This document shows positions 3,935-45,142 of a DNA stretch of 64,000 nt, in pieces (positions within the stretch are counted from its first letter, which is position 1; the number at the start of each line of letters is the position of its first letter). The position numbers were made by a program, and so were the translations under genes. Below the pieces are notes generated by a model. It searched no databases. It was not told the DNA's origin and worked only from the letters and a program-made list of their open reading frames with translations. The DNA comes from Clostridia bacterium (GTDB lineage: Bacteria > Bacillota > Clostridia > Oscillospirales > CAG-272). The DNA lies in the NCBI GenBank assembly GCA_017451915.1, contig JAFTNJ010000002.1, forward strand, positions 7,357 through 71,356, written 5' to 3'.

Positions 3935-6859
3935 ATGAACAAACGACGTTTTTTGGCATTGCTTTTGCTTTGCTCCATGCTCTTTGGGATGATCTCGTGC
4001 CTTCCGGAGGAGGATGACGACGAAGATGTTTACGAGGGCGACATTCTCCTGCACTACTACGTGAATCACGAGGATCCCGCCGGAGAAATGGGCATGATCT
4101 GGGCCAGTGACGGCTGGACGGGTTGGAGCGATTTCCCCAAACGCTTCGGCTATCGCTTTATGGGCTTTTATCTGGATCCCGACTTTCAGACCCTTGCCGT
4201 GGATACCGAGGGCGAGGTTCTTCAGTACCCCGCGGAGGGCGAGCCCATGTATTCCCGCTGGGAGCCCCACACCTTCCACATTCAGTTCGAGGTGGGAACG
4301 GATTGCAAGCTGCTTTCGGAGAAGAATGAGATCGATCTGCTTTACGGAAGCACGGTGGAATCCCTCCCCTTGGCCGAAAAGGAAGGACTGCTCTTTGTTG
4401 GCTGGAAGGACGTCAACGGCAATCTGGTCTCCAACGGCGGCGAGCCTCTTCCCGCCCACAAGCTCTTTACCGACAAGGCTTACGTTTTTAACAGCTATCG
4501 GGCGGTGCTCTCCCCGGTCTTCCGTACCGATGCCTGCATCGTTACCTTTGACTACAACGACGGCACCGGAAAGACCGAGACGCTGGAGGTTCCCCGGGGA
4601 ACCTATCTTACCGAGTCCCAATTTCCCCAGATGGATGACGGAACCAAGCGGATTGCGGCGTGGTCTCTTTACTCCGGTGGAATGAGCAGCTTTACAGAGG
4701 AGATCAACGGGGACATTACCCTCTACGCCTCCTGGCAGAGATACAAACAGGTGACCTTGAACGATACGGTGGGCAAACAGACCACGGTTTACGTTTACGA
4801 GACCCAAGGCTTTGACCTATTGAGCTATGATGAGATCTTCCGCCCCGGCTATCTTTTGGAGGGCTGGTACGACAATGCGGCGTATTCGGGCAATCCGATC
4901 TCCAACCTGACCTATGAAACGGCGGCGGAAACGTATTACGCCAAATGGACCCAAGCAACCTACGTTATTGACTTTGATAAGCTTTCCGCCGGGGAGTCGA
5001 TTGCCTCCTTCACCTATCAAATGGGAGAGAGCATTGCTCTGCGGGAGCTTTCCCGCACCGGCTACACCTTTGAGGGCTGGTGCACCCGGGAGGATCTCTC
5101 GGATCCCCCCATCAAGGAGATCACCTCCGAGTTCTGGGGGTCCTACACCCTTTACGCCAAGTTCACCCCGGATCGTTACACCCTTTCCCTGATGCCCGAG
5201 GGCGGAGCCCTGGACAAGGACGGGATTGAGGTAGACTACGGCGGTTTCTATCAGCTCCCGGTTCCCGTACGGGCCGGAAGTACCTTCCTTGGCTGGTTTG
5301 ACGGCACGGGGAAGAACGCTACGGCTTATACCGACACCGACGGCAAGGCCTTGCAGGCGTATCCCCATCTGTCCAACATTACCCTGTATGCCCATTGGTC
5401 GGTTCAGACCTTTACCGTTCGCTTTGACTTTGGTAACGGCACGGAGGAATCCTATGTGTATTCCTACGGGGACCGTCTGCATTTCCCCAACGAGCCTGTC
5501 AAGGAGGGAATGTTCTTTGCCGGGTGGTATGACCGGGACTACGTCCGCAGCTACGATACCAACACCCCGGTGACCTCGGATCTGGTGCTCTGTGCCAAAT
5601 GGAGTGAGACCAATCCCTTGGCTGTGGGTTCGCCTCTCTATTTCGTGGGAGAGGTCAACGGCATAGTTCACTTCCGCGGACACTATTACAAAGTCTTCAA
5701 GATCACCAGCACCTGGGACCAGGCCCAAAGCCTTTGCGCGTCCATGGGAGGACATCTGGTGACCCTGACCAGTCGCAGCGAAAACGATTTCGTATTTCAG
5801 CTTTGCAAATCCAACGGGACCCATAACTACCATCTCGGTGCCACCGACCGCTCCTTTGAGAGCGTTTGGCAATGGGTGACCGGGGAGGAATGGGACTACG
5901 CCAACTTTGCTCCCTCCGAGCCCGGTGGAGGAACCGGCGAGAATTATCTTGCCTTTTGGACCGGCCGCTTTGACGGCAGCTGGGTGGATTATTCGGGCCA
6001 GGGCTACTTCGTTTGCGAGTGGGAGACCCAACCCGATCTGCTTTCCGGCATGGGGCAGTATAACGGCAACGCCTACCGGGTGTTTGCGGGCTCCTACAGT
6101 TGGGATCAGGCCAAGGCTCTTTGCGAGGCCTTGGGCGGTCATCTTGCCACCCTGACAACGGCGGGAGAGGATCGTTACGTTTACCAGCTTTGTAAGAGCA
6201 ACGGTGCCCTCACCTGCTATCTGGGCGCTTCCGATCGGGAGGCCGAAGGAGAATGGAAGTGGGTCACCGGTGAAAAATGGGAGTATTCCCGCTTTGCGGC
6301 CGGCGAGCCCAGTAGCGGAAGGAGCGAAAACTTCCTTTCCTTCTATTCGGGACACACCGACGGTGGCTGGAACGATTATTCCGGCTCCACCTCCTTTGTT
6401 TGCGAATGGGAGGCCGGGGACGTGGACGATGCCCTTTCCAATTTTGCCTACGTGATCAGCGATGACGCAACCTACAACGGCGCCTTCTATTACGCCGGGC
6501 ATTTGTACCAGATTCTTTCCGCCGAAATGGATTACGAGGCGGCGCAGGCCTACTGTCAATCCCTGGGCGGACATCTCGCAACCGTGGAAACCGCCGAGGA
6601 GAACGCCGCGCTCTATTCCTACATCTCCCGTTCGGGCAATATCTTCTGTGCCCTGGGAGGCTCGGATAAGGACGTGGAGGGAACCTGGGTGTGGGTCAAC
6701 GGCACGCCCGTTCCTGCTACCAACTGGGCAACCAACGAGCCTAACAACGCCAGCGGTGCCGAGCATTATCTGTATTTTGCGGAGGGCGGATACGGAACCT
6801 GGAACGATACTACTTGGCGCAACCGTTTCCTTTGCGAATGGGATTACTGTCCCCGATGA
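3935..6859 (+). CDS. lipoprotein with Listeria-Bacteroides (Flg_new/InlB B-repeat type) repeats and three C-terminal C-type lectin domains (974 aa)
   Basis: ORF 3920..6859 trimmed to ATG 3935 after GGAGG 3922-26. Signal MNKRRFLALLLLCSMLFGMISC carries a lipobox. GY-F-GW repeat motifs recur throughout. There are three W-DQA-CxxxGGHLATL...W-WVTGE...EP...FVCEWE modules. Confidence 0.85.
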   Translation: MNKRRFLALLLLCSMLFGMISCLPEEDDDEDVYEGDILLHYYVNHEDPAGEMGMIWASDGWTGWSDFPKRFGYRFMGFYLDPDFQTLAVDTEGEVLQYPAEGEPMYSRWEPHTFHIQFEVGTDCKLLSEKNEIDLLYGSTVESLPLAEKEGLLFVGWKDVNGNLVSNGGEPLPAHKLFTDKAYVFNSYRAVLSPVFRTDACIVTFDYNDGTGKTETLEVPRGTYLTESQFPQMDDGTKRIAAWSLYSGGMSSFTEEINGDITLYASWQRYKQVTLNDTVGKQTTVYVYETQGFDLLSYDEIFRPGYLLEGWYDNAAYSGNPISNLTYETAAETYYAKWTQATYVIDFDKLSAGESIASFTYQMGESIALRELSRTGYTFEGWCTREDLSDPPIKEITSEFWGSYTLYAKFTPDRYTLSLMPEGGALDKDGIEVDYGGFYQLPVPVRAGSTFLGWFDGTGKNATAYTDTDGKALQAYPHLSNITLYAHWSVQTFTVRFDFGNGTEESYVYSYGDRLHFPNEPVKEGMFFAGWYDRDYVRSYDTNTPVTSDLVLCAKWSETNPLAVGSPLYFVGEVNGIVHFRGHYYKVFKITSTWDQAQSLCASMGGHLVTLTSRSENDFVFQLCKSNGTHNYHLGATDRSFESVWQWVTGEEWDYANFAPSEPGGGTGENYLAFWTGRFDGSWVDYSGQGYFVCEWETQPDLLSGMGQYNGNAYRVFAGSYSWDQAKALCEALGGHLATLTTAGEDRYVYQLCKSNGALTCYLGASDREAEGEWKWVTGEKWEYSRFAAGEPSSGRSENFLSFYSGHTDGGWNDYSGSTSFVCEWEAGDVDDALSNFAYVISDDATYNGAFYYAGHLYQILSAEMDYEAAQAYCQSLGGHLATVETAEENAALYSYISRSGNIFCALGGSDKDVEGTWVWVNGTPVPATNWATNEPNNASGAEHYLYFAEGGYGTWNDTTWRNRFLCEWDYCPR

Positions 6860-6901
6860 ATTCGGGTTTGCATAAGATTTTAACCTTTGGAGGAGAACGT
6901 T

Positions 6902-9900
6902 TTGAAGAGAAGATTTTTATGGATCCTGTTGGGTCTGCTGCTCCTGGCGGTCTGCTTTACCGCCTGCGATTCGGGGGACGATCCCGACGTTGGCTCTCAG
7001 CAGGGCGGTGATGTTACCGTTACCTATTACATCACCGTAGGCGGCGAGGCGAATCAGTTCATCGCTTACGACGGTGTGCTGGAGCTCTACGATATCCCCG
7101 CGCGTATGGGATACGAGTTCCTGGGCCTTTACGATGCGCCCGAGGGCGGTAGCCAGATCGTAACGCCCATGGGCACCGGCAACGTGCAGGTTACCAAGCC
7201 CCTGACGCTGTACGCCCATTGGAGAGCACTCTCCTATACCATCACCTTCCTTCCCGGGGAGGGCTCCCTGCCCGAGGGGCAGAGCACGATGACGGTGCTC
7301 TACGGGGAGACCCTGAGCATCTTCCCGATTCCCGAGCGGGAGGGCTATGATTTCGTTGGTTGGGACGACGGTTACGGCGCCCTCTGCTCCACCGGCGGCA
7401 CGGTCAATGAGGACAAGAGAGTTTTTGACGAAAGCTCCTACTATTTTGTCAATACCGGCGTGACCCTCCGTGCCCAATGGAAGGAAAAGAAGCTTGCCGT
7501 GGTATTCGATTACAACGACGGCACCTACAAGACCGACGCTATGGAGGTGGCCTACGGTCTGCCTCTGGATCCCTCTACCTTCCCCCAGGTGGACGACGGA
7601 ACCAAGTTCATTACGGGCTGGTCCCTCAGCCGCAGCTCTCAGATCAACTTTGAGGGCAAGGTGACCGAGGATCTGACCCTCTACGCGATCTGGCAGGAGT
7701 ACAAGACCCTCTCGATCTATACCGAGATCGGTACCGAGCCCGAGCAGATCCGCATTTTCCGCAACGAGATCTTCGAGTGTCCCACCCCCACCAAGGATGG
7801 CTATTGGTTCGACGGCTGGTATTCCTCCACGCTCTTCTCGGGTCTGCCTCTGACCAACGTGACCTTTGGCGCGGGTGTCAGTGAGATCTACGCCAAGTGG
7901 ACCCCTGTGGAGTACAAGATCCAATTCGTAACCAACAACGGCACGTCCCTGCCCGACGGAAGCTATACCATTGAGACCTCCGTTACCCTGCCCACCCTGC
8001 AGAAGGATTATTGCAAGTTCCTTGGCTGGTGCATGAACGAGGATCTTTCGGACATTCCCATGCTCACCCTTCCCACGGGGCTGACCGGGGACATGACCCT
8101 GTACGCCAGCTTCCGCGGTGAGAACCGCGCCATGATCCTGGATCCCGACGGCGGCTTTGTTTCCAACAGCTTTATCACCGTGGAATACGGCAAGAGCTAC
8201 GTGCTGCCGGTTCCCATGCGGGACGGCTACGCGTTTGTTGGCTGGTACTCCGCGGACGGAGTTCAATACACCGATGCCAACGGCAACGCCCTATTTGAGT
8301 GCGATCTCACGGTGCCGGACATTTCCCTGATTGCAAAATACGACAAGAAATATTACGTTCTCTACGATTCCAATCTGACCGGTGCCGGCTCCATCACCGT
8401 CAACGAGTATTATCTGGCGGGAGAAACGGTTACGGTGGAGCTCAAGGTCAATCCCGGATACCGTTACATAAGCATGTCTTACAACGGCACGCCTCTGGTG
8501 ACCGGACTGAAATACACCTTTGTGATGCCTGAGGAGAACGTGACCATTACCGGTACCTTTGAGGCTTTGGTCTACCGCGTGGGACTCAATCCCAACGGCG
8601 GCTTCAGCAAGGACAACATGGCAACCCTGACCTTTGGTCAGTCGTATAGCCTGCCCGTGGCCTGGAAGACGGGAATGCTCTTTGTTGGTTGGCGTACCCC
8701 GGATGGGGAATTGCTCACCGACGAGAACGGCAACTCTTTGAAGGCATGGCACCTGACCGAGAGCATGAGCCTGGAGGCTTCCTTTGTGGAGAATCCCGAC
8801 GGTGACGCCTTCATTTTGGTGTACGACGTTGAAACCTTCCTTTCCATGAAGGAGAATCCCTCCAAGACCTACACTCTGGTCAGCAACATTGACCTGTTGG
8901 GTGTGACCTGGACTCCCTTCGAGTTCAGCGGCAACCTCAACGGCAACGGCTTTACCATTAAGAATCTGACCGTTACTACTTCCGCTGACTACGGCGGTAT
9001 GTTTACCACGCTGACCGGAACGGTGCGGGACCTCAATTTTGAAAACCTGACGGTCACCAATACCCAAACCGGCCTGAATCACACCGGCGGTGTGTGTGGC
9101 TACCTGAATTCGGGTACGCTGAATAACGTTCATATCAAATCGGGCAGCATTACGGCAAAGAATGCCGATCTGGGCGGTCTGGTTGGTAATATGAGCAAAA
9201 ACGGCGCCAACATCGTTAAAAATTGCAGCAACAGCGCACAGGTCCTCAACGAATCCACCTCGGGGCAGCGTGCTACCGGCGGTATCGTGGGTTATTACCA
9301 GAACAATGCCGGATTGGTTACCGATTGCGTTAACCACGGCGCGGTGTCCGGCTCCAACTGTGTGGGCGGTATCCTCGGTTATATGGAATTTACCGGTGTT
9401 CTTCCCACCCAAAACCTGATCAACTACGGTGAGATCAACGGTACGACCTACGTGGGCGGCCTGATCGGTCGCATTAACACGGGCTTGGATTCCTCCATCC
9501 AATGGAATTCCGTCAACCACGGTAAGGTAACGGGTACCACCTACGTGGGCGGTTTGATTGGTGAGCTCTATGCCTCCACCGGTGGAAATCGCACGCTGGT
9601 TCTGAGTGATTTTACCAACCACGGAGAGACCGTGGGAACCGAGTGTGTGGGCGGCGTGATTGGCCGAATCCACATCAGCTCGGGTGGCTACGTCAAGCTG
9701 GACGCCGCTAAACTGATCAACGACGGCGCGGTGACCGGACGCAACTACGTGGGCGGTCTGCTCGGTTACGGTTATACCGATACCGACGAATCCAAGATCG
9801 TCAACTCGCAAAGCAGCGGTGTCATTACGGCAGAGTACTACCTTGGCGGTATTGCGGGTAGGCTGGAGAACATTCAGCTGGATTCCTGCTCCAATAAGGG

Positions 9901-28541: not shown

Positions 28542-28757
28542 AACCCGTTGATACCTCGGAAATTGCAAAGGCGATCCCGTGCAATACAGGAAGATCCAGG
28601 GCGCCGGGCCGTGGAATTTTCCTTACCGTTCCTGTCCGGCGTGTGCGCGGCAGATACACGGTACAGACGAAAAAGATCGCCGAAGCAACCGGCATCCGAA
28701 GCTATCAAAGTCATGCCGGACGACTTGCCCGACAGAAAAGGTCGTTAATAAGTGCGT

Positions 28758-29936
28758 ATGAAAGAAACACATGAATTTTTAATTCCCGATTATTATTCCA
28801 AATTTTCCTGCAAGATGGGAGCCTGTCGCGCCGCCTGCTGTGTCGGCTGGCCTATTTCCATCTCAATGACGAACTATTTTTATCTGCTGGGACTTGACTG
28901 TAAAAAGGATCTGCGTGGCCGTCTGGACTGCGGACTGCGCGTGATAGACCATCCAACCGAGGAGGAATACGCCCGCTTTGAACCGCGGTATGACGGAAAC
29001 TGTCCCTTGCGTATGCAGGATGGGCGTTGTGCGCTGCACGCCGAGCTTGGCGAGGAGATCCTTCCCGACGTCTGCCGTCTCTATCCCCGCGGCATCCGTG
29101 CGGAGGACGGGATCTATGAGTGCTCCTGTGCCAACAGCTGCGAGGCGGTGCTTGAGCTGTTGCTTGAACAGAAGGAGCCGATCTCCTTTTCCTTCAAGCA
29201 AATGACGGTGCAGACCCCACCTCTGGTTGAGCGAATGTCTTTTTTTGAAACGCTCGGCGTTGAGCAGAGGATCCGTCTGCATCTGGGTTGCATCATGCAG
29301 GATCGTAGCATGACGCTTCCCCGGCGAATGATCTGCATCGGAGATACCCTTGACCGTATGGATCTTGCCTTTGAAGCCAAGGATAAGGCCATGCTTGACC
29401 GTATATTGAGTGAGACGCCAACGCTTGGCCCCGATGCGTTTTCGGAAAAAGACGTGGAATCCAAGCATTTGGAGTTCGGACTGCAGATCGTTGAGCAGAT
29501 GATTGCGATTCTGGACGGGCGAAGCCAAAGCATTCGCGCTTGTGGAGAGGCGGCACTTTCCTATTTTGGAGAGGGGGAATCTGCCATTGTCCGGTATCGC
29601 GAGGCGAGGTCACATTTCGAGGATATCCTGCCCGATTGGGAGATCTTTTACGAGCATATGCTGGTCAATCATATGTTCTTTTCACGCTTTCCCTTTCAGG
29701 ACAGACCCGAAAGCATGCACAGCGAGTATGTGGCACTTTGCGCCGTCTACGCGATCCTGCGGTTCCTCGGCCTTGGATGCATGGCGGAGAGCAAAGAGAA
29801 GGAGGCTTTGATTGACGGTATGGCGGCGACCTTCCGACTCATCGAGCACACCGAATTTGACCGTTTTGCCTCCCATCTGCTGGGAAGGCTTGGCTGTACG
29901 GCAAAAGAACGTCTTTACGATCTGATGCTTCTGTAA
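28758..29936 (+). CDS. FliB-like cysteine-cluster protein (flagellin lysine-N-methylase / YkgJ-type family)
   Basis: N-terminal FSCKMGACRAACCVGWPISI, later GNCPLRMQDGRCALH and CRLYPR. The start is ATG 28758 or GTG 28752. Confidence 0.6.
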   Translation: MKETHEFLIPDYYSKFSCKMGACRAACCVGWPISISMTNYFYLLGLDCKKDLRGRLDCGLRVIDHPTEEEYARFEPRYDGNCPLRMQDGRCALHAELGEEILPDVCRLYPRGIRAEDGIYECSCANSCEAVLELLLEQKEPISFSFKQMTVQTPPLVERMSFFETLGVEQRIRLHLGCIMQDRSMTLPRRMICIGDTLDRMDLAFEAKDKAMLDRILSETPTLGPDAFSEKDVESKHLEFGLQIVEQMIAILDGRSQSIRACGEAALSYFGEGESAIVRYREARSHFEDILPDWEIFYEHMLVNHMFFSRFPFQDRPESMHSEYVALCAVYAILRFLGLGCMAESKEKEALIDGMAATFRLIEHTEFDRFASHLLGRLGCTAKERLYDLMLL

Positions 29937-30021: not shown

Positions 30022-30050
30022 TTGACATCAGCACTTTAACGTGATAAAAT
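30022..30050 (+). promoter_or_regulatory. promoter of the ilv-leu operon
   Basis: TTGACA 30022-27, 17 nt, TAAAAT 30045-50. Confidence 0.7.
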
Positions 30051-30076
30051 GCTACCAAAATTTAATAGCAACAAAA

Positions 30077-30536
30077 GCTGTGACGAAGAATGGTCAAGAT
30101 GCAAACGCATTTCAGAGAGCCGATGGGTGGTGTGAATCGGTATGTAACGATCTTGTCCTCTCCCTTCTGAGCCGGAAGCCTGAAGCAAACGTGTGTAGGG
30201 CGACCCGTGTATGCTACGTCAGTGCATAGAGGTTGATGGACTTCGAAATCAAAGGCGTTGATGAAGACGGAAACTGCAACGATTTTCACAGAGAGTCGGG
30301 GATGGTGTGATCCCGATAAAGGACTGTAGATTTCTTATCCCTTCTGAGCCGGAAGCCCCAAAGGTGTAAGCACCCAGTAGGCGCTCCCCGTGTATGCTAC
30401 GTTAGTGCATAGAAGTTGATGGACTTCGAAGAGGTGGCGGAATATTTGTATCCGCAATTTGAGTGGTACCGCGAGTGTTTTATCAGCACCCGTCTCAAAG
30501 CAAAATTTTTAGGCTTTGAGACGGGTGTTATTTTTT
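30077..30536 (+). promoter_or_regulatory. T-box leader with a tandemly duplicated Stem I to Stem III module
   Basis: AGAGAG bulges at 30114-19 and 30290-95. Distal loops are GGGTGGTGTGA and GATGGTGTGA. The T-box sequence AATTTGAGTGGTACCGCGAG lies at 30456-75. A terminator lies at 30487-30536. Confidence 0.8.
30487..30536 (+). terminator. T-box-controlled intrinsic terminator
   Basis: 15-bp stem CACCCGTCTCAAAGC / GCTTTGAGACGGGTG followed by TTATTTTTT. Its CTCAAA can instead pair with TTTGAG of the T-box to form the antiterminator. Confidence 0.85.
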
Positions 30537-30588
30537 GTCCCGGAGCCGCCATATCATCAAACAGATCTTATGAAAGGCGGAGATTGTT

Positions 30589-31779
30589 ATGTTATCCCTC
30601 GATAAAGTATTCAATGCGCAAACGGTTCTAAGGAACCTCGTTCGTGAAACAAAGTTGGTAAGAGCTTACGGAATTGCCCCCGATTGTGAGCTCTATTTAA
30701 AGCCCGAAAACCTGCAGATTACCGGTTCCTTTAAGGTTCGGGGATCCGCATATAAAATTGCGATGCTGACCGACGAGGAAAAGAAAAAGGGCGTGATTGC
30801 CTGTTCCGCCGGAAACCATGCGCAAGGCGTGGCTCTTGCGGCAACCCAAAATGGGATCAAGTCCTTGATTTGTCTACCCGACAGCGCACCCATCTCCAAG
30901 GTGGAGGCCACCAAGGGATACGGCGCGGAGGTGTGCCTTGTGGAAGGCTGCTACGATGATGCCTACCAAAAAGCACTCGAGCTTCGTGACCGAGAGGGAT
31001 ATACCTTCGTTCATCCCTTTGACGATGAAAACGTCATCGCGGGGCAGGGCACGATTGCCCTTGAAATTCTGAACGAGCTGGACAACATCGACGCCATCGT
31101 CGTTCCCATCGGCGGCGGGGGACTGATTTCCGGCATTGCCTATACCGCAAAGCAGATCAGACCCTCCATTCGGATTTACGGTGTGCAGGTGGCGGGGGCT
31201 CCCAGCATGTACAACTCGGTCAAGGACGGAGAGATCGAGTGCCTGTCCTCGGTTTCCACCATCGCGGACGGTATTGCGGTCAAGAAGCCCGGCGAAAACA
31301 CCTACGCTCTCGTAAAGGAATACGTGGATGAGATCGCCCTTGTGACCGACGATGAGGTCTCCTCCGCGATTCTGGCACTCATCGAAAAGCAAAAAATGAT
31401 TGCCGAGGGCGCGGGAGCCACGGCGGTGGCGGCGGTGATGTTTGATAAATTCCATTTGAAGGGCAAACGGGTGGTTGCCGTGGTATCGGGCGGGAACATC
31501 GACGTTACAAGCCTTTCCCGTGTGATCGATCGCGGACTTCTCAAATCGGGACGCTCCTCAAGCCTTCTCATCGAGCTGATCGACAAGCCCGGACAGCTCA
31601 AGGAGATCTCCCGCATCATTGCCGATTGCGGCGGGAACGTCACCGGTGTGCATTATGAAAAGGGCGATACCGAGAGCGTCAACGGCTGTTTCCTCCGTAT
31701 TGAAATGGAAACAAGGGATTTTGAACACGTCAACCTCATTACCCAAACGCTTCGTGCCGAGGGATTCAAATTGGTGTAA
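30589..31779 (+). CDS. ilvA: threonine ammonia-lyase (threonine dehydratase)
   Basis: PLP lysine motif GSFKVRG, SAGNHAQGVA, and a C-terminal ACT-like domain. Confidence 0.85.
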   Translation: MLSLDKVFNAQTVLRNLVRETKLVRAYGIAPDCELYLKPENLQITGSFKVRGSAYKIAMLTDEEKKKGVIACSAGNHAQGVALAATQNGIKSLICLPDSAPISKVEATKGYGAEVCLVEGCYDDAYQKALELRDREGYTFVHPFDDENVIAGQGTIALEILNELDNIDAIVVPIGGGGLISGIAYTAKQIRPSIRIYGVQVAGAPSMYNSVKDGEIECLSSVSTIADGIAVKKPGENTYALVKEYVDEIALVTDDEVSSAILALIEKQKMIAEGAGATAVAAVMFDKFHLKGKRVVAVVSGGNIDVTSLSRVIDRGLLKSGRSSSLLIELIDKPGQLKEISRIIADCGGNVTGVHYEKGDTESVNGCFLRIEMETRDFEHVNLITQTLRAEGFKLV

Positions 31780-31807
31780 TGGTGTAATTTTGAAGGGAGT
31801 TAAAGTT

Positions 31808-32185
31808 ATGAGTAATCAAATTCAAACAAACAAAGCACCGGCGGCAATTGGCCCCTACTCGCAAGCAGTCGTTGTAGGCAATCTCATTTTTACCTCCGGA
31901 CAAATTCCGCTCCATCCCGAAACGGGAATTTTGGAGGGGAATAACATCACCGAGCAAACACACAGAGTTTGCAAAAATTTGGAGGCCGTTCTGATCGCCT
32001 CGGGTTCCTCTCCTGCCAAAGCGATCAAGACCACCTGCTTTTTGAGTGATATGGCGGATTTCGCCGCATTTAATGAAGTATACGCGCAGTATTTTACCGA
32101 AAAGCCCGCCAGAAGCTGTGTGGCGGTAAAGGATCTTCCCAAAGGCGCTCTTGTCGAGGTGGAAGTCATTGCAGAAAAGGAGTAA
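31808..32185 (+). CDS. ridA: RidA-family enamine/imine deaminase
   Basis: Inner part of ORF 31619..32185, starting at ATG 31808 after GGGAG. Motifs APAAIGPYSQA, GQIP and ARSCVAVKDLPKGALVEVE. Confidence 0.9.
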   Translation: MSNQIQTNKAPAAIGPYSQAVVVGNLIFTSGQIPLHPETGILEGNNITEQTHRVCKNLEAVLIASGSSPAKAIKTTCFLSDMADFAAFNEVYAQYFTEKPARSCVAVKDLPKGALVEVEVIAEKE

Positions 32186-32191
32186 GACGTG

Positions 32192-33865
32192 ATGATGGAT
32201 GCAAGTAAATACCGAGTGGGATATTTTCCCGTTGGCAAAGAATATAACAAGTGGGTCACCAAGGACCACATTCAAAAGCCACCCGCGTGGTGCTCGGTGG
32301 ATATGCGCGATGGCAACCAGAGCCTGATCATTCCCATGAGCCTTGAAGAAAAATTGGAATATTATAAGATGCTTCTTGAGGTTGGATTCAAGGAGATCGA
32401 AGTTGGTTTTCCTGCCGCAAGCGAAACCGAATATGAGTTTCTCCGCACGCTGATCGATAACAGGATGATTCCCGAGGACGTGACCGTTCAGGTGCTGACA
32501 CAATGCCGTGAGCATATCATCCGAAAGACCTTTGATGCCTGCAAGGGCGCGCCCAGCGCAATCATTCACTTTTACAATTCGGTCAGCGTAGCCCAGCGCG
32601 AGCAGGTGTTCAGAAAATCCAAGGATGAAATCAAGCAGATCGCCGTAGACGGCGCAAGGCTCGTCAAAAAGCTGGCCTCGGAATATGAAGGGGACTTCCG
32701 ATTCGAATATTCCCCCGAGTCCTTTACGGGTACAGAGCCCGAATATGCTTTGGAGGTCTGCAACGCGGTTCTTGACGTGCTGGAACCAAGCGAGACCAAC
32801 AACGTGATTATCAATCTTCCCGTGACTGTGGAAATGAGCCTCCCTCACGTGTACGCCTCGCAAGTGGAGTATATGAGCGAAAACCTCAAATACCGCAAAT
32901 TTGTAACCCTTTCTTTGCATCCTCACAACGACAGAGGTACGGGTGTTGCCGATACCGAGCTGGCTCTTTTGGCGGGTGCTGACCGTGTAGAGGGGACGCT
33001 GTTTGGCAACGGCGAGCGGACGGGCAACGTGGACGTTATCACGCTGGCAATGAATATGTACTCTCACGGTGTTGATCCCAAGCTCGACCTTTCAAACATG
33101 AACGAGCTTGTAGAAAAATACGAGAAATGCACCCGAATGCACGTCTATGAAAGAGCCCCTTACGCGGGCGCGCTGGTATTTGCGGCGTTTTCGGGCTCCC
33201 ATCAGGACGCGATCGCCAAGGGCATGAAATACCGTACAAAGAACAAGCTCCACGAGTGGAGCGTGCCGTATATTCCCATCGATCCCAAGGATATTGGCAG
33301 AACCTACGATGCCGATGTGATCCGTGTGAACTCTCAAAGCGGTAAGGGCGGCATCGGGTATCTCTTGGAGCAGACCTTTGGATACAATCTTCCCGCCAAA
33401 ATGCGCGAGCACTTCAGCTATCTGTGTAAAAGCGTGTCCGATCACGAGCACAAGGAGCTCAAGCCCGATGAAATTTTGGACATCTTCACCACAAACTATT
33501 TGAATCTTAACAGCGGTATATCGGTAACGGATTTTGACTTTATGCGTGAAAACGACGCAGTAAAAATCAATATTACGTTTCAAAAGAACGGTGAAGAAAC
33601 CGAGCTGGAAGCCGAGGGCAACGGTACGCTGAGTGCTGTGAACAATGCGCTCTGCGAATATACGGGCGAGGAATACACGCTGCAGGTGTTCACCCAGCAC
33701 AGTATGCAGGGCGACGGTTCTCACAGCGTTGCGGCATCCTATATCGGCCTTGAGCGTGAGGACGGCACAATGTATTGGGGTGCGGGTACAGACACCGACG
33801 TGATTACCGCAAGCACCAAAGCGCTGCTGAGCGCATTCCATAATATGATCCAAGGAGGAAACTGA
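32192..33865 (+). CDS. leuA: 2-isopropylmalate synthase (long form)
   Basis: Motifs [12 protein letters not shown] and [11 protein letters not shown] plus a C-terminal regulatory domain. ATG 32192 lies 9 nt after AAGGAG; GTG 32189 is also possible. Confidence 0.9.
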
Positions 33866-33866
33866 A

Positions 33867-35126
33867 ATGGGAATGACTATGACGCAAAAGATCCTCGCAG
33901 CTCATGCGGGACTGGACAGGGTTGAGGCAGGACAACTGATCTCGGCAAGGCTGGATATGGTTCTCGGGAACGATATTACCACGCCCGTTGCAGTTAATGA
34001 ATTTAAAAAAGCGGGATTTGATTCCGTGTTTGATAAAGACCGCGTGGCCATCGTCCTTGACCACTTTGTTCCCAACAAGGACATCAAGGCGGCGGAGCAA
34101 TCCAAAACCTGCCGTGAATTCGCCTGCGCTCATTGTGTGAGCCACTTTTACGACGTAGGTAAGATGGGCATTGAACACGCGCTTCTTCCCGAGCAGGGTG
34201 TGGTTACCGCAGGCGATTGCATTATCGGTGCGGACAGTCACACTTGCACCTACGGCGCACTCGGCGCGTTCTCCACCGGCGTCGGCTCTACCGATATGGC
34301 GGCAGGCATGGCAACGGGAATGGCGTGGTTCAAGGTGCCCTCGGCGATCAAATTCCATCTGACGGGAACGCTTCCCTCAAATTGCAGCGGCAAGGATGTG
34401 ATCCTTTCCATCATCGGTAAGATCGGTGTGGACGGAGCCCTTTATAAGAGCATGGAATTTGTGGGCGACGGCGCTCACGGACTTTCTATGGATGACAGAC
34501 TTTGCATCTGCAACATGGCAATCGAAGCGGGGGCAAAGAACGGTATTTTTCCCGTAGATGACATAACGCTTGATTATCTGAATGGCCGAAGCGAAAGAGC
34601 CCCCGTTGTTTATGAGGCCGACGCCGACGCGGAATACGAAAAGGTGATCGATATTGACCTTTCAAAAATCGTTCCCACGGTTGCATGTCCCCACCTTCCC
34701 GAAAACACGCGTCCCGCAAGCGAGCTTCACGGTATCAAGGTGGATCAGGTGGTGATCGGCTCCTGTACCAACGGCAGAATGGAGGATATGGAAGCGGCAT
34801 ACAAGATCTTGAACGGTAACAAGGTTGCCAACGGCGTACGTTGTATCATCATTCCCGGTACGATGCAGATTTTGCGCGAGTGCGTAGAGCGTGGATATTA
34901 TACCGCGTTCATTGATGCGGGCGCGGTGGTGTCCACACCTACCTGCGGTCCCTGCCTCGGCGGTTACATGGGCATTCTTGCCGCGGGCGAAAAATGCGTT
35001 GCCACCACCAACCGTAACTTTGTTGGCCGTATGGGGCACGTTGACAGTGAGGTGTACCTTGCCTCTCCCCATACTGCCGCCGCAAGTGCGCTGACCGGCT
35101 ATATCACCGAATACAAGGAGGCGTGA
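33867..35126 (+). CDS. leuC: 3-isopropylmalate dehydratase large subunit
   Basis: Aconitase-type motifs [19 protein letters not shown] and CGPCLG. Confidence 0.9.
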
Positions 35127-35128
35127 AC

Positions 35129-35626
35129 ATGAATACACAAGGAAAGGTTTTTAAATATCCCGATAACGTGGACACCGACGTTATCATCCCTGCACGGTAT
35201 CTGAATACCCCCGATGCAAAGGAGCTTGCGTTGCATTGTATGGAGGATATCGACGCTGAATTTGTGAAAAGGGTTCAGACCGGCGACGTGATGGTTGCAG
35301 GATGGAATTTTGGCTGCGGCTCGTCCCGTGAGCACGCACCGCTTGTGATCAAGACCTGCGGTACGGGGTGTGTGATTGCAAAGAGCTTTGCCCGTATTTT
35401 CTACCGCAATGCCATCAACATCGGACTTCCCATTTTGGAGTGCGAAGAAGCGGCCGAAGAGATCCGTGGGGGGGATGCGGTCAAGGTGGATTTTGATACG
35501 GGTGTCATTACCAACGTAACTACGGGAAAGACCTATCAGGCACAGCCTTTTCCGCTGTTCATTCAGAACATCATTCAATGCGGCGGACTGCTTAAATCTT
35601 TGAAAGAAGGCGAAAACAATGGTTAA
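35129..35626 (+). CDS. leuD: 3-isopropylmalate dehydratase small subunit
   Basis: ATG 35129 lies 8 nt after AGGAGG. Motif [11 protein letters not shown]. Confidence 0.9.
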
Positions 35627-36686
35627 AAATATCGCAGTGATCCGCGGTGACGGCATCGGCCCCGAGATCGTTGAACAAGCCCTGCACGTGCTTGATAGGG
35701 TTGCCGCACTGTACGGTCACACCTTCAACTATACCGATGTGGATATGGGTGGATGCGCCATTGATAAATACGGCGATCCGTTGCCCGAAAGTGAACTAAA
35801 AAAATGCATCGAATCGGACAGCGTTTTGCTGGGAGCTGTGGGAGGGAACAAATGGAACGACGTGCCCGGCCATATGCGACCCGAAAAAGGACTTCTTCGC
35901 CTCCGCGCGGGAATGGGCGTTTACTCCAACAACCGTCCCGCAAAGATCTGGAAACAGCTTGCGGATGCCTCTCCGCTGAAAAAGGAAATTGTTGATAAAG
36001 GCATCGATTTTATCATTGTTCGCGAGCTGATCGGGGGCATCTACTTTGGAGAGCACAAAACCGAAGGGGACGTTGCTACCGACGTTTTGACCTACAGCGA
36101 GGCCGAAATCGAGCGGATCGGAAGGATCGGCTTTGAAACGGCACAAAAGAGAAACAAAAAGCTTTGCTCGGTAGAAAAGAGTAACGTTCTCGATTCCAGC
36201 CGCCTTTGGAAGAAGGTGATGCACCGACTCGCCGACGAATATCCCGACGTTGAGCTTTCGGATATGCTTGTTGACAACTGTGCGATGCAGATCGTCAAAA
36301 ATCCCGCGCAGTTTGACGTTATCGTCACCGAGAATATGTTTGGCGACATCCTTTCGGATGAGGCATCGATGATTACAGGCTCTATCGGTATGATCCCTTC
36401 GTCAAGCCTTGGCGCAACTACCTGCGGACTGTATGAGCCGATCCACGGTTCCGCTCCCGATATTGCGGGGCAGGATAAAGCGAACCCCATTGGTACAATC
36501 CTCTCGGCCGCTATGATGCTTCGCTTCAGCTTTGATATGCGTGATGAGGCGGATGCCATCGAAAATGCCGTTTCCGCGTATCTTGACGCAGGGTATCGCA
36601 CCGCCGATATTATGAGCGAGGGAGAAAGCCTCGTTGGCTGTCGTCGGTGCGGCGAGCTGATTGTTGAAAATTTAAGAAAGGGGTGA
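35619..36686 (+). CDS. leuB: 3-isopropylmalate dehydrogenase
   Basis: Motifs [30 protein letters not shown] and GSAPDIAG. Confidence 0.9.
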
Positions 36687-45065: not shown

Positions 45066-45142
45066 TGGTCGAGGTGACGGGATTCGAACCCACGACTTCT
45101 ACGTCCCGAACGTAGCGCTCTACCAAACTGAGCCACACCTCG
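45066..45142 (-). tRNA. tRNA-Pro (anticodon CGG), CCA-encoded
   Basis: The reverse complement folds by hand into a cloverleaf. Acceptor is CGAGGTG/CACCTCG, D arm GCTC-AGTTTGGTA-GAGC, anticodon arm CTACG-TTCGGGA-CGTAG, T arm GTGGG-TTCGAAT-CCCGT, with discriminator A and CCA. Confidence 0.9.

Follow-up and report, generated by a model that had tools for sequence, protein, structure and literature searches.

Can a single discriminator serve two decoding domains that read different tRNAs? In T-boxes, the textbook example, one site of the RNA reads tRNA identity and another reads tRNA charging, with the tRNA itself used as the ruler. Two identity readers combined with one charge sensor challenge this one-to-one geometry. 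Such a combination is found in the window (the whole stretch of 64,000 nucleotides analysed here), where a T-box leader occupies positions 30071-30538 of the plus strand, between a FliB-like gene and ilvA. This leader contains two decoding modules of about 180 nt each, made of Stem I, Stem II and a IIA/B pseudoknot, and only one Stem III, one antiterminator and one terminator. A preliminary description of this DNA had proposed that the two Stem I copies carry a Leu and an Ile specifier in front of a single terminator. The features of the leader and of the operon that follows it are collected in Table 1.

Table 1. Features of the leader and of the downstream operon, in window coordinates, with the sequence elements or matches on which they are based.
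Feature	Position	Strand	Elements or basis
Promoter-like site	30022-30050	+	TTGACA, 17-nt spacer, TAAAAT, TG before the -10; 11/12 matches
Decoding module A (predicted tRNA-Leu reader)	30071-30247	+	RF00230, 55.1 bits; lacks its own Stem III, antiterminator and terminator
Module A Stem I	30077-30172	+	K-turn GCUGUGAC 30077-84 / UGAGC 30168-72
Module A lower helix	30085-88/30164-67	+	GAAG/CTTC
Module A upper helix	30095-100/30150-55	+	CAAGAT/ATCTTG
Module A AG bulge	30114-18	+	AGAGA
Module A distal loop	30125-35	+	GGGUGGUGUGA
Module A specifier CUC (Leu), then C30163	30160-30162	+	RF00230 codon columns and conservation
Module A Stem II	30174-30205	+	
Module A IIA/B pseudoknot	30206-30228	+	
Module A extra hairpin	30229-30244	+	
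Decoding module B (predicted tRNA-Ile reader)	30249-30430	+	Within full-length RF00230 match, 78.9 bits
Module B Stem I	30255-30349	+	K-turn GCGUUGAU 30255-62 / UGAGC 30345-49
Module B lower helix	30263-66/30341-44	+	GAAG/CTTC
Module B upper helix	30270-73/30331-34	+	GAAA/TTTC
Module B AG bulge	30290-94	+	AGAGA
Module B distal loop	30301-11	+	GAUGGUGUGAU
Module B specifier AUC (Ile), then C30340	30337-30339	+	RF00230 codon columns and conservation
Module B Stem II	30351-30388	+	AGUA/AAA S-turn-like motif
Module B IIA/B pseudoknot	30389-30411	+	
Module B extra hairpin	30412-30427	+	
Stem III, single copy	30437-30455	+	GCGGAAUAUUUGUAUCCGC; Rfam alignment
Antiterminator, single copy	30460-30497	+	T-box bulge UGGUACC 30464-30470
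Intrinsic terminator	30487-30538	+	15-bp perfect stem 30487-30501/30513-30527, then UUAUUUUUUGU (U-tract)
Regulated operon ilvA-ridA-leuACDB	30589-36686	+	NCBIfam matches
ilvA	30589-31779	+	TIGR01127
ridA	31808-32185	+	TIGR00004
leuA	32189-33865	+	NF002991
leuC	33867-35126	+	TIGR02083
leuD	35123-35626	+	TIGR02084
leuB	35619-36686	+	TIGR00169

A default Rfam scan at the gathering threshold reported no T-box in the window. When the scan was made permissive, the RF00230 model returned two adjacent matches. The downstream match (30249-30500) covered the full length of the model (78.9 bits, E = 2.4e-17). The upstream match (30071-30236; 55.1 bits, E = 3.1e-11) was aligned with the antiterminator portion of the model deleted. 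Both scores are lower than the gathering score of 93 bits, and homologues of the more distant group reach 94 to 96 bits. The permissive scan of the whole window detected no further T-box. Thus, standard annotation and surveys performed at that threshold miss such leaders, and partial copies are missed altogether, which leaves an incomplete description of how abundant Clostridia of the gut and rumen regulate branched-chain amino acid synthesis.

Both copies displayed the anatomy of a T-box decoding domain, with the same order of elements: K-turn, 4-bp lower helix, small specifier loop, upper helices, AG bulge and distal loop, then Stem II, followed by the IIA/B pseudoknot and an extra 5-bp hairpin. 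The GA motif at the base of Stem I aligned to the K-turn columns of the model in both cases. The AG bulge (AGAGA) and the distal loop (GGUGNGA-like), which form the platform for the tRNA elbow, were also present twice, and compensatory changes were detected in Stem II and the pseudoknot of each copy. Only one antiterminator was found, with its 7-nt bulge and in competition with an intrinsic terminator (30460-30538), copy A having none. The helix and loop coordinates of the preliminary description were all correct for both Stem I copies. Helices of 4 bp would be trivial when considered alone, but RF00230 matches both copies.

Folding with a T-box-aware model had been suggested as a check of the specifiers. 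In the RF00230 alignment, CUC followed by C and AUC followed by C occupy the codon and following-base columns, and the CUUC strand of the lower helix comes next. Both triplets lie on the 3' side of their loop and match the amino acids of the regulated operon. These loops are very small. In copy A the 3' side reads UCCUCUCC (30156-63), and G30092 and G30093 can pair with C30158 and C30157, leaving U-CUC-C. In copy B it reads UUAUCC (30335-40), and pairing of G30269 with U30335 (G-C in 13 of 18 relatives) leaves just U-AUC-C. The overlapping triplets CCU and UCU of copy 1, kept by the preliminary description as alternative specifiers, had to be discarded. Indeed, these frames are not conserved (CUG/CUA/CUU and GCU/ACU in relatives), conservation being limited to the CUC frame, and C30157 and C30158 are probably base-paired.

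Two further points concern the surroundings of the codon. The base that follows it is C in both copies, as had been noted, rather than the usual purine. This was taken as a reason to doubt the specifiers, but the base is C, A, G or U among relatives; C is thus lineage variation, and no conserved purine was found at this position in the two copies or in the relatives. The specifier-loop S-turn that was to be looked for is absent in its canonical AGUA/GAA form: the 5' sides of the loops read AAUGGU and ACG, and the 3' sides contain no GAA. An S-turn-like motif, AGUA/AAA or UGUA/GAA, sits in Stem II instead.

The strong promoter-like site upstream of module A predicts a transcript start near 30057. 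No second promoter-like site was detected between 29900 and 30620, and hence none between modules A and B. One promoter would then produce one transcript carrying both modules plus the single discriminator. Motility of the organism is suggested by the gene located 5' of the leader (28752-29936, plus strand), whose product is a FliB-like flagellin lysine-N-methylase (NF038110, E = 1.1e-48). Neither the window nor any of the fetched loci contained a tRNA-Leu or tRNA-Ile gene; the sole tRNA gene of the window is a tRNA-Pro(CGG) (45066-45142, minus strand).

The single terminator proposed in the preliminary description was confirmed, with one antiterminator and one terminator at 30460-30538. Only a few bases, and no expression platform, separate the last hairpin of module A (ending at 30244) from the K-turn stem of module B (starting at 30255). 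Folded alone, the antiterminator region formed helix A1, the 7-nt bulge and helix A2. The terminator stem is an inverted repeat with 100% complementarity, and its 5' arm overlaps the 3' strand of the antiterminator. The segment 30431-30540 folds at -43 kcal/mol (z = -5.8), and none of 200 shuffles folded as well. The leader therefore has the architecture of a tandem-aptamer riboswitch, with two sensor domains and one expression platform, and not that of a full tandem, where each unit possesses its own antiterminator and terminator.

The bulge sequence TGGTACC is common to every type of genomic leader described below, and its UGGU is found alike in Leu-only, Ile-only, dual and Val/Ile leaders. 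This UGGU would pair with the ACCA 3' end of the tRNA. Among tRNA identity elements, the A73 discriminator is common to bacterial tRNA-Leu, tRNA-Ile and tRNA-Val. The presence of UGGU in all leader types fits this shared A73, a common discriminator being a precondition for sharing the bulge. Two candidates for a second acceptor-binding site were also considered and rejected. The UGGU on the 5' side of the module A specifier loop (30091-94) has its two G residues probably paired with C30158 and C30157, and the motif is missing in four relatives (L003, L004, L021 and L030). The loop of the module-end hairpin (UGAUGG, which includes UGG) varies freely in sequence among species.

The leader was compared with 80 ilvA loci from species-level genomes (IlvA identity 74-95%) of uncultured gut and rumen Clostridia of the Oscillospiraceae/Acutalibacteraceae type. 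Units were mapped in these loci using nhmmer, MAFFT and a purpose-written Stem I scanner. Two units in the order Leu then Ile, with one T-box bulge, were found in 18 leaders including that of the window. The upstream triplet was CTC in 17 of these and CTG in the other (L023), and the downstream triplet was ATC in all 18. The order was Ile then Leu, again with one bulge, in six more distant genomes (L062, L070, L071, L073, L078 and L080; IlvA about 75%), where the upstream partial copy carries ATC followed by A and the downstream full copy CTC followed by U. Each of the 24 dual genomic leaders contains one TGGTACC bulge. Across about 70 homologous Stem I units, the specifier register of the genomic leaders holds only CTC/CTG or ATC.

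Other layouts were detected in the same set of loci. Single-unit leaders are of the Ile type (ATC) in about 17 cases and of the Leu type (CTC) in about 17. In some of the latter, such as L010 and L024, a Leu-type Stem I adjoins the same discriminator, which indicates that this module type can work with this antiterminator. In the single module of L010 (1837-2018), Stem I and Stem II are of the Leu type but the 3' end is of the Ile type (GAAGU arm followed by GAAGAG), as though inter-repeat recombination had deleted the intervening segment. Finally, in one locus (L048, 221-965) a complete Leu T-box with its terminator is followed by a complete Ile T-box that also has one, and a promoter-like TTGACA...TATAAT lies between the two. 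This full tandem may be an evolutionary relative of the partial tandem, or an intermediate in its history. As relatives place the same operon under Leu only, Ile only or two complete T-boxes, the dual arrangement is not required.

The existence of L048, with the same Leu-then-Ile order, provides a plausible ancestor from which module A could have decayed after losing its terminator, and module A does have the lower Rfam score (55.1 bits). Selection on the modules bears directly on this reading. Covariation was tested on an explicit T-box architecture including the pseudoknot, with pairs counted on upstream-only and downstream-only alignments. In the upstream modules (18 species), 90.7% of cells were paired, against 31-43% with slid partners; 12 pairs showed compensatory changes, and no shuffle matched the observed covariation score. 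The downstream modules gave 97.0% against 36-55%, also with 12 compensatory pairs. The pseudoknot UAUGC/GCAUA was 96-98% paired. Moreover, the K-turn was intact in all 18 upstream modules, and the AG bulge and distal loop were kept, apart from AGAAA with UGAUG in three modules and GCUG in two. In these alignments, structural selection acts on the terminator-less upstream module in the same way as on the complete one. Such maintenance of the helices and pseudoknot of module A by compensatory changes, together with a conserved K-turn and specifier and nearly conserved elbow-platform motifs, is not what is expected of a relic. In addition, the layout persists from 95% down to 75% IlvA identity, in both orders and with a Val variant. 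Decay of a former complete T-box is thus largely refuted, and we regard it as very improbable.

The support for Stem I comes from this comparison and not from folding energy, since single-sequence folding of Stem I gave no better energies than shuffles (z = 0.17 and -0.83). A consensus fold of the 18 upstream copies by RNAalifold was rejected as wrong, GAAG being paired with the CUUC of the 3' hairpin. The extra 5-bp hairpin ends every module in single and dual leaders, with conserved arms (GARGU/ACUUC) and a variable loop, and the distant group has an equivalent hairpin (GCGA-UGUUGG-UCGC). The AGAAA form of the AG bulge was seen only with the distal loop UGAUG, in the upstream modules of L003, L004 and L042 and in L040 (4/4, never otherwise). 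This association may reflect tertiary covariation within the platform of interdigitated T-loops on which the tRNA elbow stacks.

Modules A and B share about 45% identity in Stem I. Between species, Stem I identity is 0.68 for the upstream copies and 0.77 for the downstream ones. A recent duplication followed by point mutation was considered as the origin of the two units and is excluded by the 45% figure; judging from this divergence, the units are two aptamer lineages joined together. In the segment from specifier to Stem II (about 30156-30180 and 30333-30357), identity between modules was 0.778 within a genome versus 0.752 between genomes (permutation p = 0.006), and 16 of 18 dual leaders have the same base after the codon in both of their modules. 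This within-genome homogenisation is weak and hints at occasional gene conversion sparing the first codon base.

In another reading, the proximal module alone (Ile in the window) would control the terminator, the distal module binding tRNA in an accessory role. The distal module might then assist folding during transcription, increase the tRNA concentration locally, protect from RNase or act as a charge-blind, tRNA-holding brake. This reading accounts for the canonical spacing of module B to Stem III and the antiterminator, and for the somewhat faster evolution of the distal module (Stem I identity 0.68 versus 0.77). Furthermore, single-module Ile leaders run the same ilvA-leuA operon in six genomes.

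Metagenomes were scanned with the junction signature as query, i.e. the 3' arm of the hairpin, a short linker and the next K-turn. Among 65 matches, 29 were genuine partial tandems with a single bulge. They comprise 25 Leu-then-Ile leaders, three Val-then-Ile leaders and one short contig (L087) in which only the Ile module was detected. The downstream triplet was ATC in 29 of 29. In the three Val-then-Ile contigs (L105, L117 and L119), GUC precedes AUC. Two of them, L105 (leader at about 6400-7000, minus strand of the locus) and L119, have ilvA followed directly by ilvB, the acetolactate synthase large subunit (TIGR00118, E = 4.7e-138), without ridA or leuA. The third, L117, has a different terminator and a feoB-like gene after the leader, which suggests a rearrangement.

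Leu-then-Ile leaders precede ilvA-(ridA)-leuA in 13 of 15 assessable genomic cases, the exceptions being L001 and L018 (ilvB after ilvA), and precede ilvA-ridA-leuA in all 15 metagenomic contigs with enough sequence. The Leu-only leaders first identified are all placed before ilvA-leuA (9/9). Ile-only leaders lack a downstream leuA in 11 of 17 cases, and six of these 11 have ilvB. In L001 (4095-4244) and in L114, ilvB is preceded by a leuA remnant made up of roughly its first 50 codons, which suggests a recent deletion of leuA in operons still bearing a Leu-then-Ile leader.

The distal specifier thus changes with the controlled genes, which would be difficult to account for if it were not read. 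It is retained as Leu, turns to Val along with operon content, and is Ile in the reversed order, all of which points to amino-acid-specific sensing, and a charge-blind module would be of no obvious benefit. Control by the proximal module alone therefore appears rather unlikely. The assignment of CUC and AUC as specifiers, made in the preliminary description, now has three kinds of evidence in its favour: the RF00230 columns, the conservation of the triplets across species and the link to operon content.

We favour a mechanism in which both modules communicate with the shared bulge. Stem I does not discriminate between charged and uncharged tRNA; charging is sensed only by the antiterminator (PMC7583486). 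A distal module unable to reach the bulge could thus not report starvation. Since only the bulge senses charging and both modules are kept by selection, we infer that the tRNA of either module reaches it. Whichever module holds it, a tRNA would pair through its 3' end with the shared UGGU, and uncharged tRNA-Leu or uncharged tRNA-Ile would each block termination, resulting in an OR gate. ilvA (Ile) and leuABCD (Leu) would then be switched on when either amino acid is short. Such a gate is well matched to an operon in which a step specific to Ile is combined with the Leu branch, whereas a full tandem needs both.

The geometry argues against this OR gate. About 185 nt of folded RNA (module B) separate module A from the discriminator, and T-boxes are molecular rulers for tRNA, so that access from the distal module is not obvious. 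To our knowledge there is no structural precedent for a distal tRNA reaching the discriminator. The missing canonical S-turn, the C after the codon, the Rfam scores under the gathering score and the alternative layouts of relatives also count against the favoured reading. In the minimum-energy fold of the whole leader, the module-end hairpins (30229-44 and 30412-27) exchange arms. This arm swap would loop out module B and place module A in the canonical position beside Stem III, and it would toggle which tRNA meets the single UGGU bulge. As an answer to the distal geometry, such a swap is speculation drawn from a folding model. The hairpin arms are nearly invariant; the sole variant, the upstream module of L023 (arm ACCUC), slightly disfavours the swap.

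The contact predicted between the repeated hairpins of the two modules could also indicate cooperation, both tRNAs being needed, for example if occupancy of module A were required for module B to fold correctly or to dock on the discriminator. Cooperation is known from tandem aptamers that share an expression platform, as in the glycine riboswitch (PMC12452182). However, one acceptor-binding bulge reads the charging of one tRNA at a time. AND logic is already provided by a full tandem, as found in the relative L048, and an operon with Ile-specific and Leu-specific branches would be poorly served by a requirement for both starvations. We consider a cooperative gate of this kind distinctly unlikely.

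Returning to the OR gate, the present analysis demonstrates the anatomy of the leader, its specifiers, the conservation and covariation, the single expression platform and the link to operon content, while tRNA binding, distal access and the OR logic are our inference. Taken jointly with this gate, the description of the leader as a partial-tandem, dual-specificity T-box, in which module A would read tRNA-Leu through CUC and module B tRNA-Ile through AUC, likewise has roughly an even chance of being right. The more general proposal is tentative and falls somewhat short of that: a natural two-input T-box, with interchangeable Leu, Ile and Val modules in series before one discriminator, forming an OR gate over uncharged tRNAs. 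If either tRNA does reach the bulge, the leader would be a natural RNA OR gate over amino acids, a logic that is impossible for full tandems. The modules would then be swappable, since natural leaders include Leu, Ile and Val versions as well as both orders, which would make them attractive for engineering.

This leader shares with canonical T-boxes of branched-chain amino acid operons (RF00230) the same elements in the same order, the UGGN bulge, the overlapping terminator and the biosynthetic targets. The Bacillus subtilis ilv-leu leader, as cited in PMC12452182, senses tRNA-Leu. Unlike in a canonical T-box, the decoding part is present twice here, with different specifiers and one discriminator. 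The specifier loop is also tiny (3' side U-NNN-N), with neither the AGUA/GAA S-turn nor a conserved purine after the codon.

Morales and Merino (2025, PMC12452182) catalogued full tandem T-boxes, with two or three complete units in series, ahead of trp, thr and ilv/leu genes, ilvA and leuA among them. According to the same article, T-boxes tend to occur as complete tandem units, tandem riboswitches sense identical ligands, and both aptamers may need their ligand; the word 'specifier' has no occurrence in it. The present leader resembles these tandems in having more than one T-box element in the leader of one amino-acid operon, and branched-chain amino acid operons of Bacillota are enriched for tandems. 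It differs from them, as there is no platform between the units and the amino-acid specificities are different, whereas full tandems have a terminator per unit and are treated as sensing identical ligands.

Partially tandem T-boxes are mentioned in a review that lists their modes of action as unknown and an open question (Zhang 2020, PMC7583486). They are probably the general class of this leader; the review gives neither their anatomy nor their specificities. Two decoding modules of different specificity with one antiterminator were not found described in our full-text search, which left aside the comparative papers of 2008-2010. We therefore consider, with moderate but not high confidence, that the dual-specificity form has been undescribed so far. 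Duplicated terminator-antiterminator elements were reportedly noted by Vitreschak et al. in 2008; they would be the opposite kind of partial duplication to the one found here.

Two other systems combine a single platform with more than one input. In the NT-box of Clostridium acetobutylicum, as related in PMC5622331, two overlapping codons in one specifier loop are used for two tRNAs (Saad et al. 2013). In that account, as here, one T-box expression platform is proposed to answer two tRNAs. The NT-box described there has one Stem I, whereas the leader of the window has two separate, complete decoding modules, with its specifiers in two Stem I domains and overlapping frames that are not conserved. 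Finally, the leader resembles the glycine riboswitch in the succession of two sensor domains and a single expression platform. In the glycine riboswitch, both domains cooperatively bind the same small ligand; here, two different tRNAs would be read, and their charging would be sensed at one shared site.
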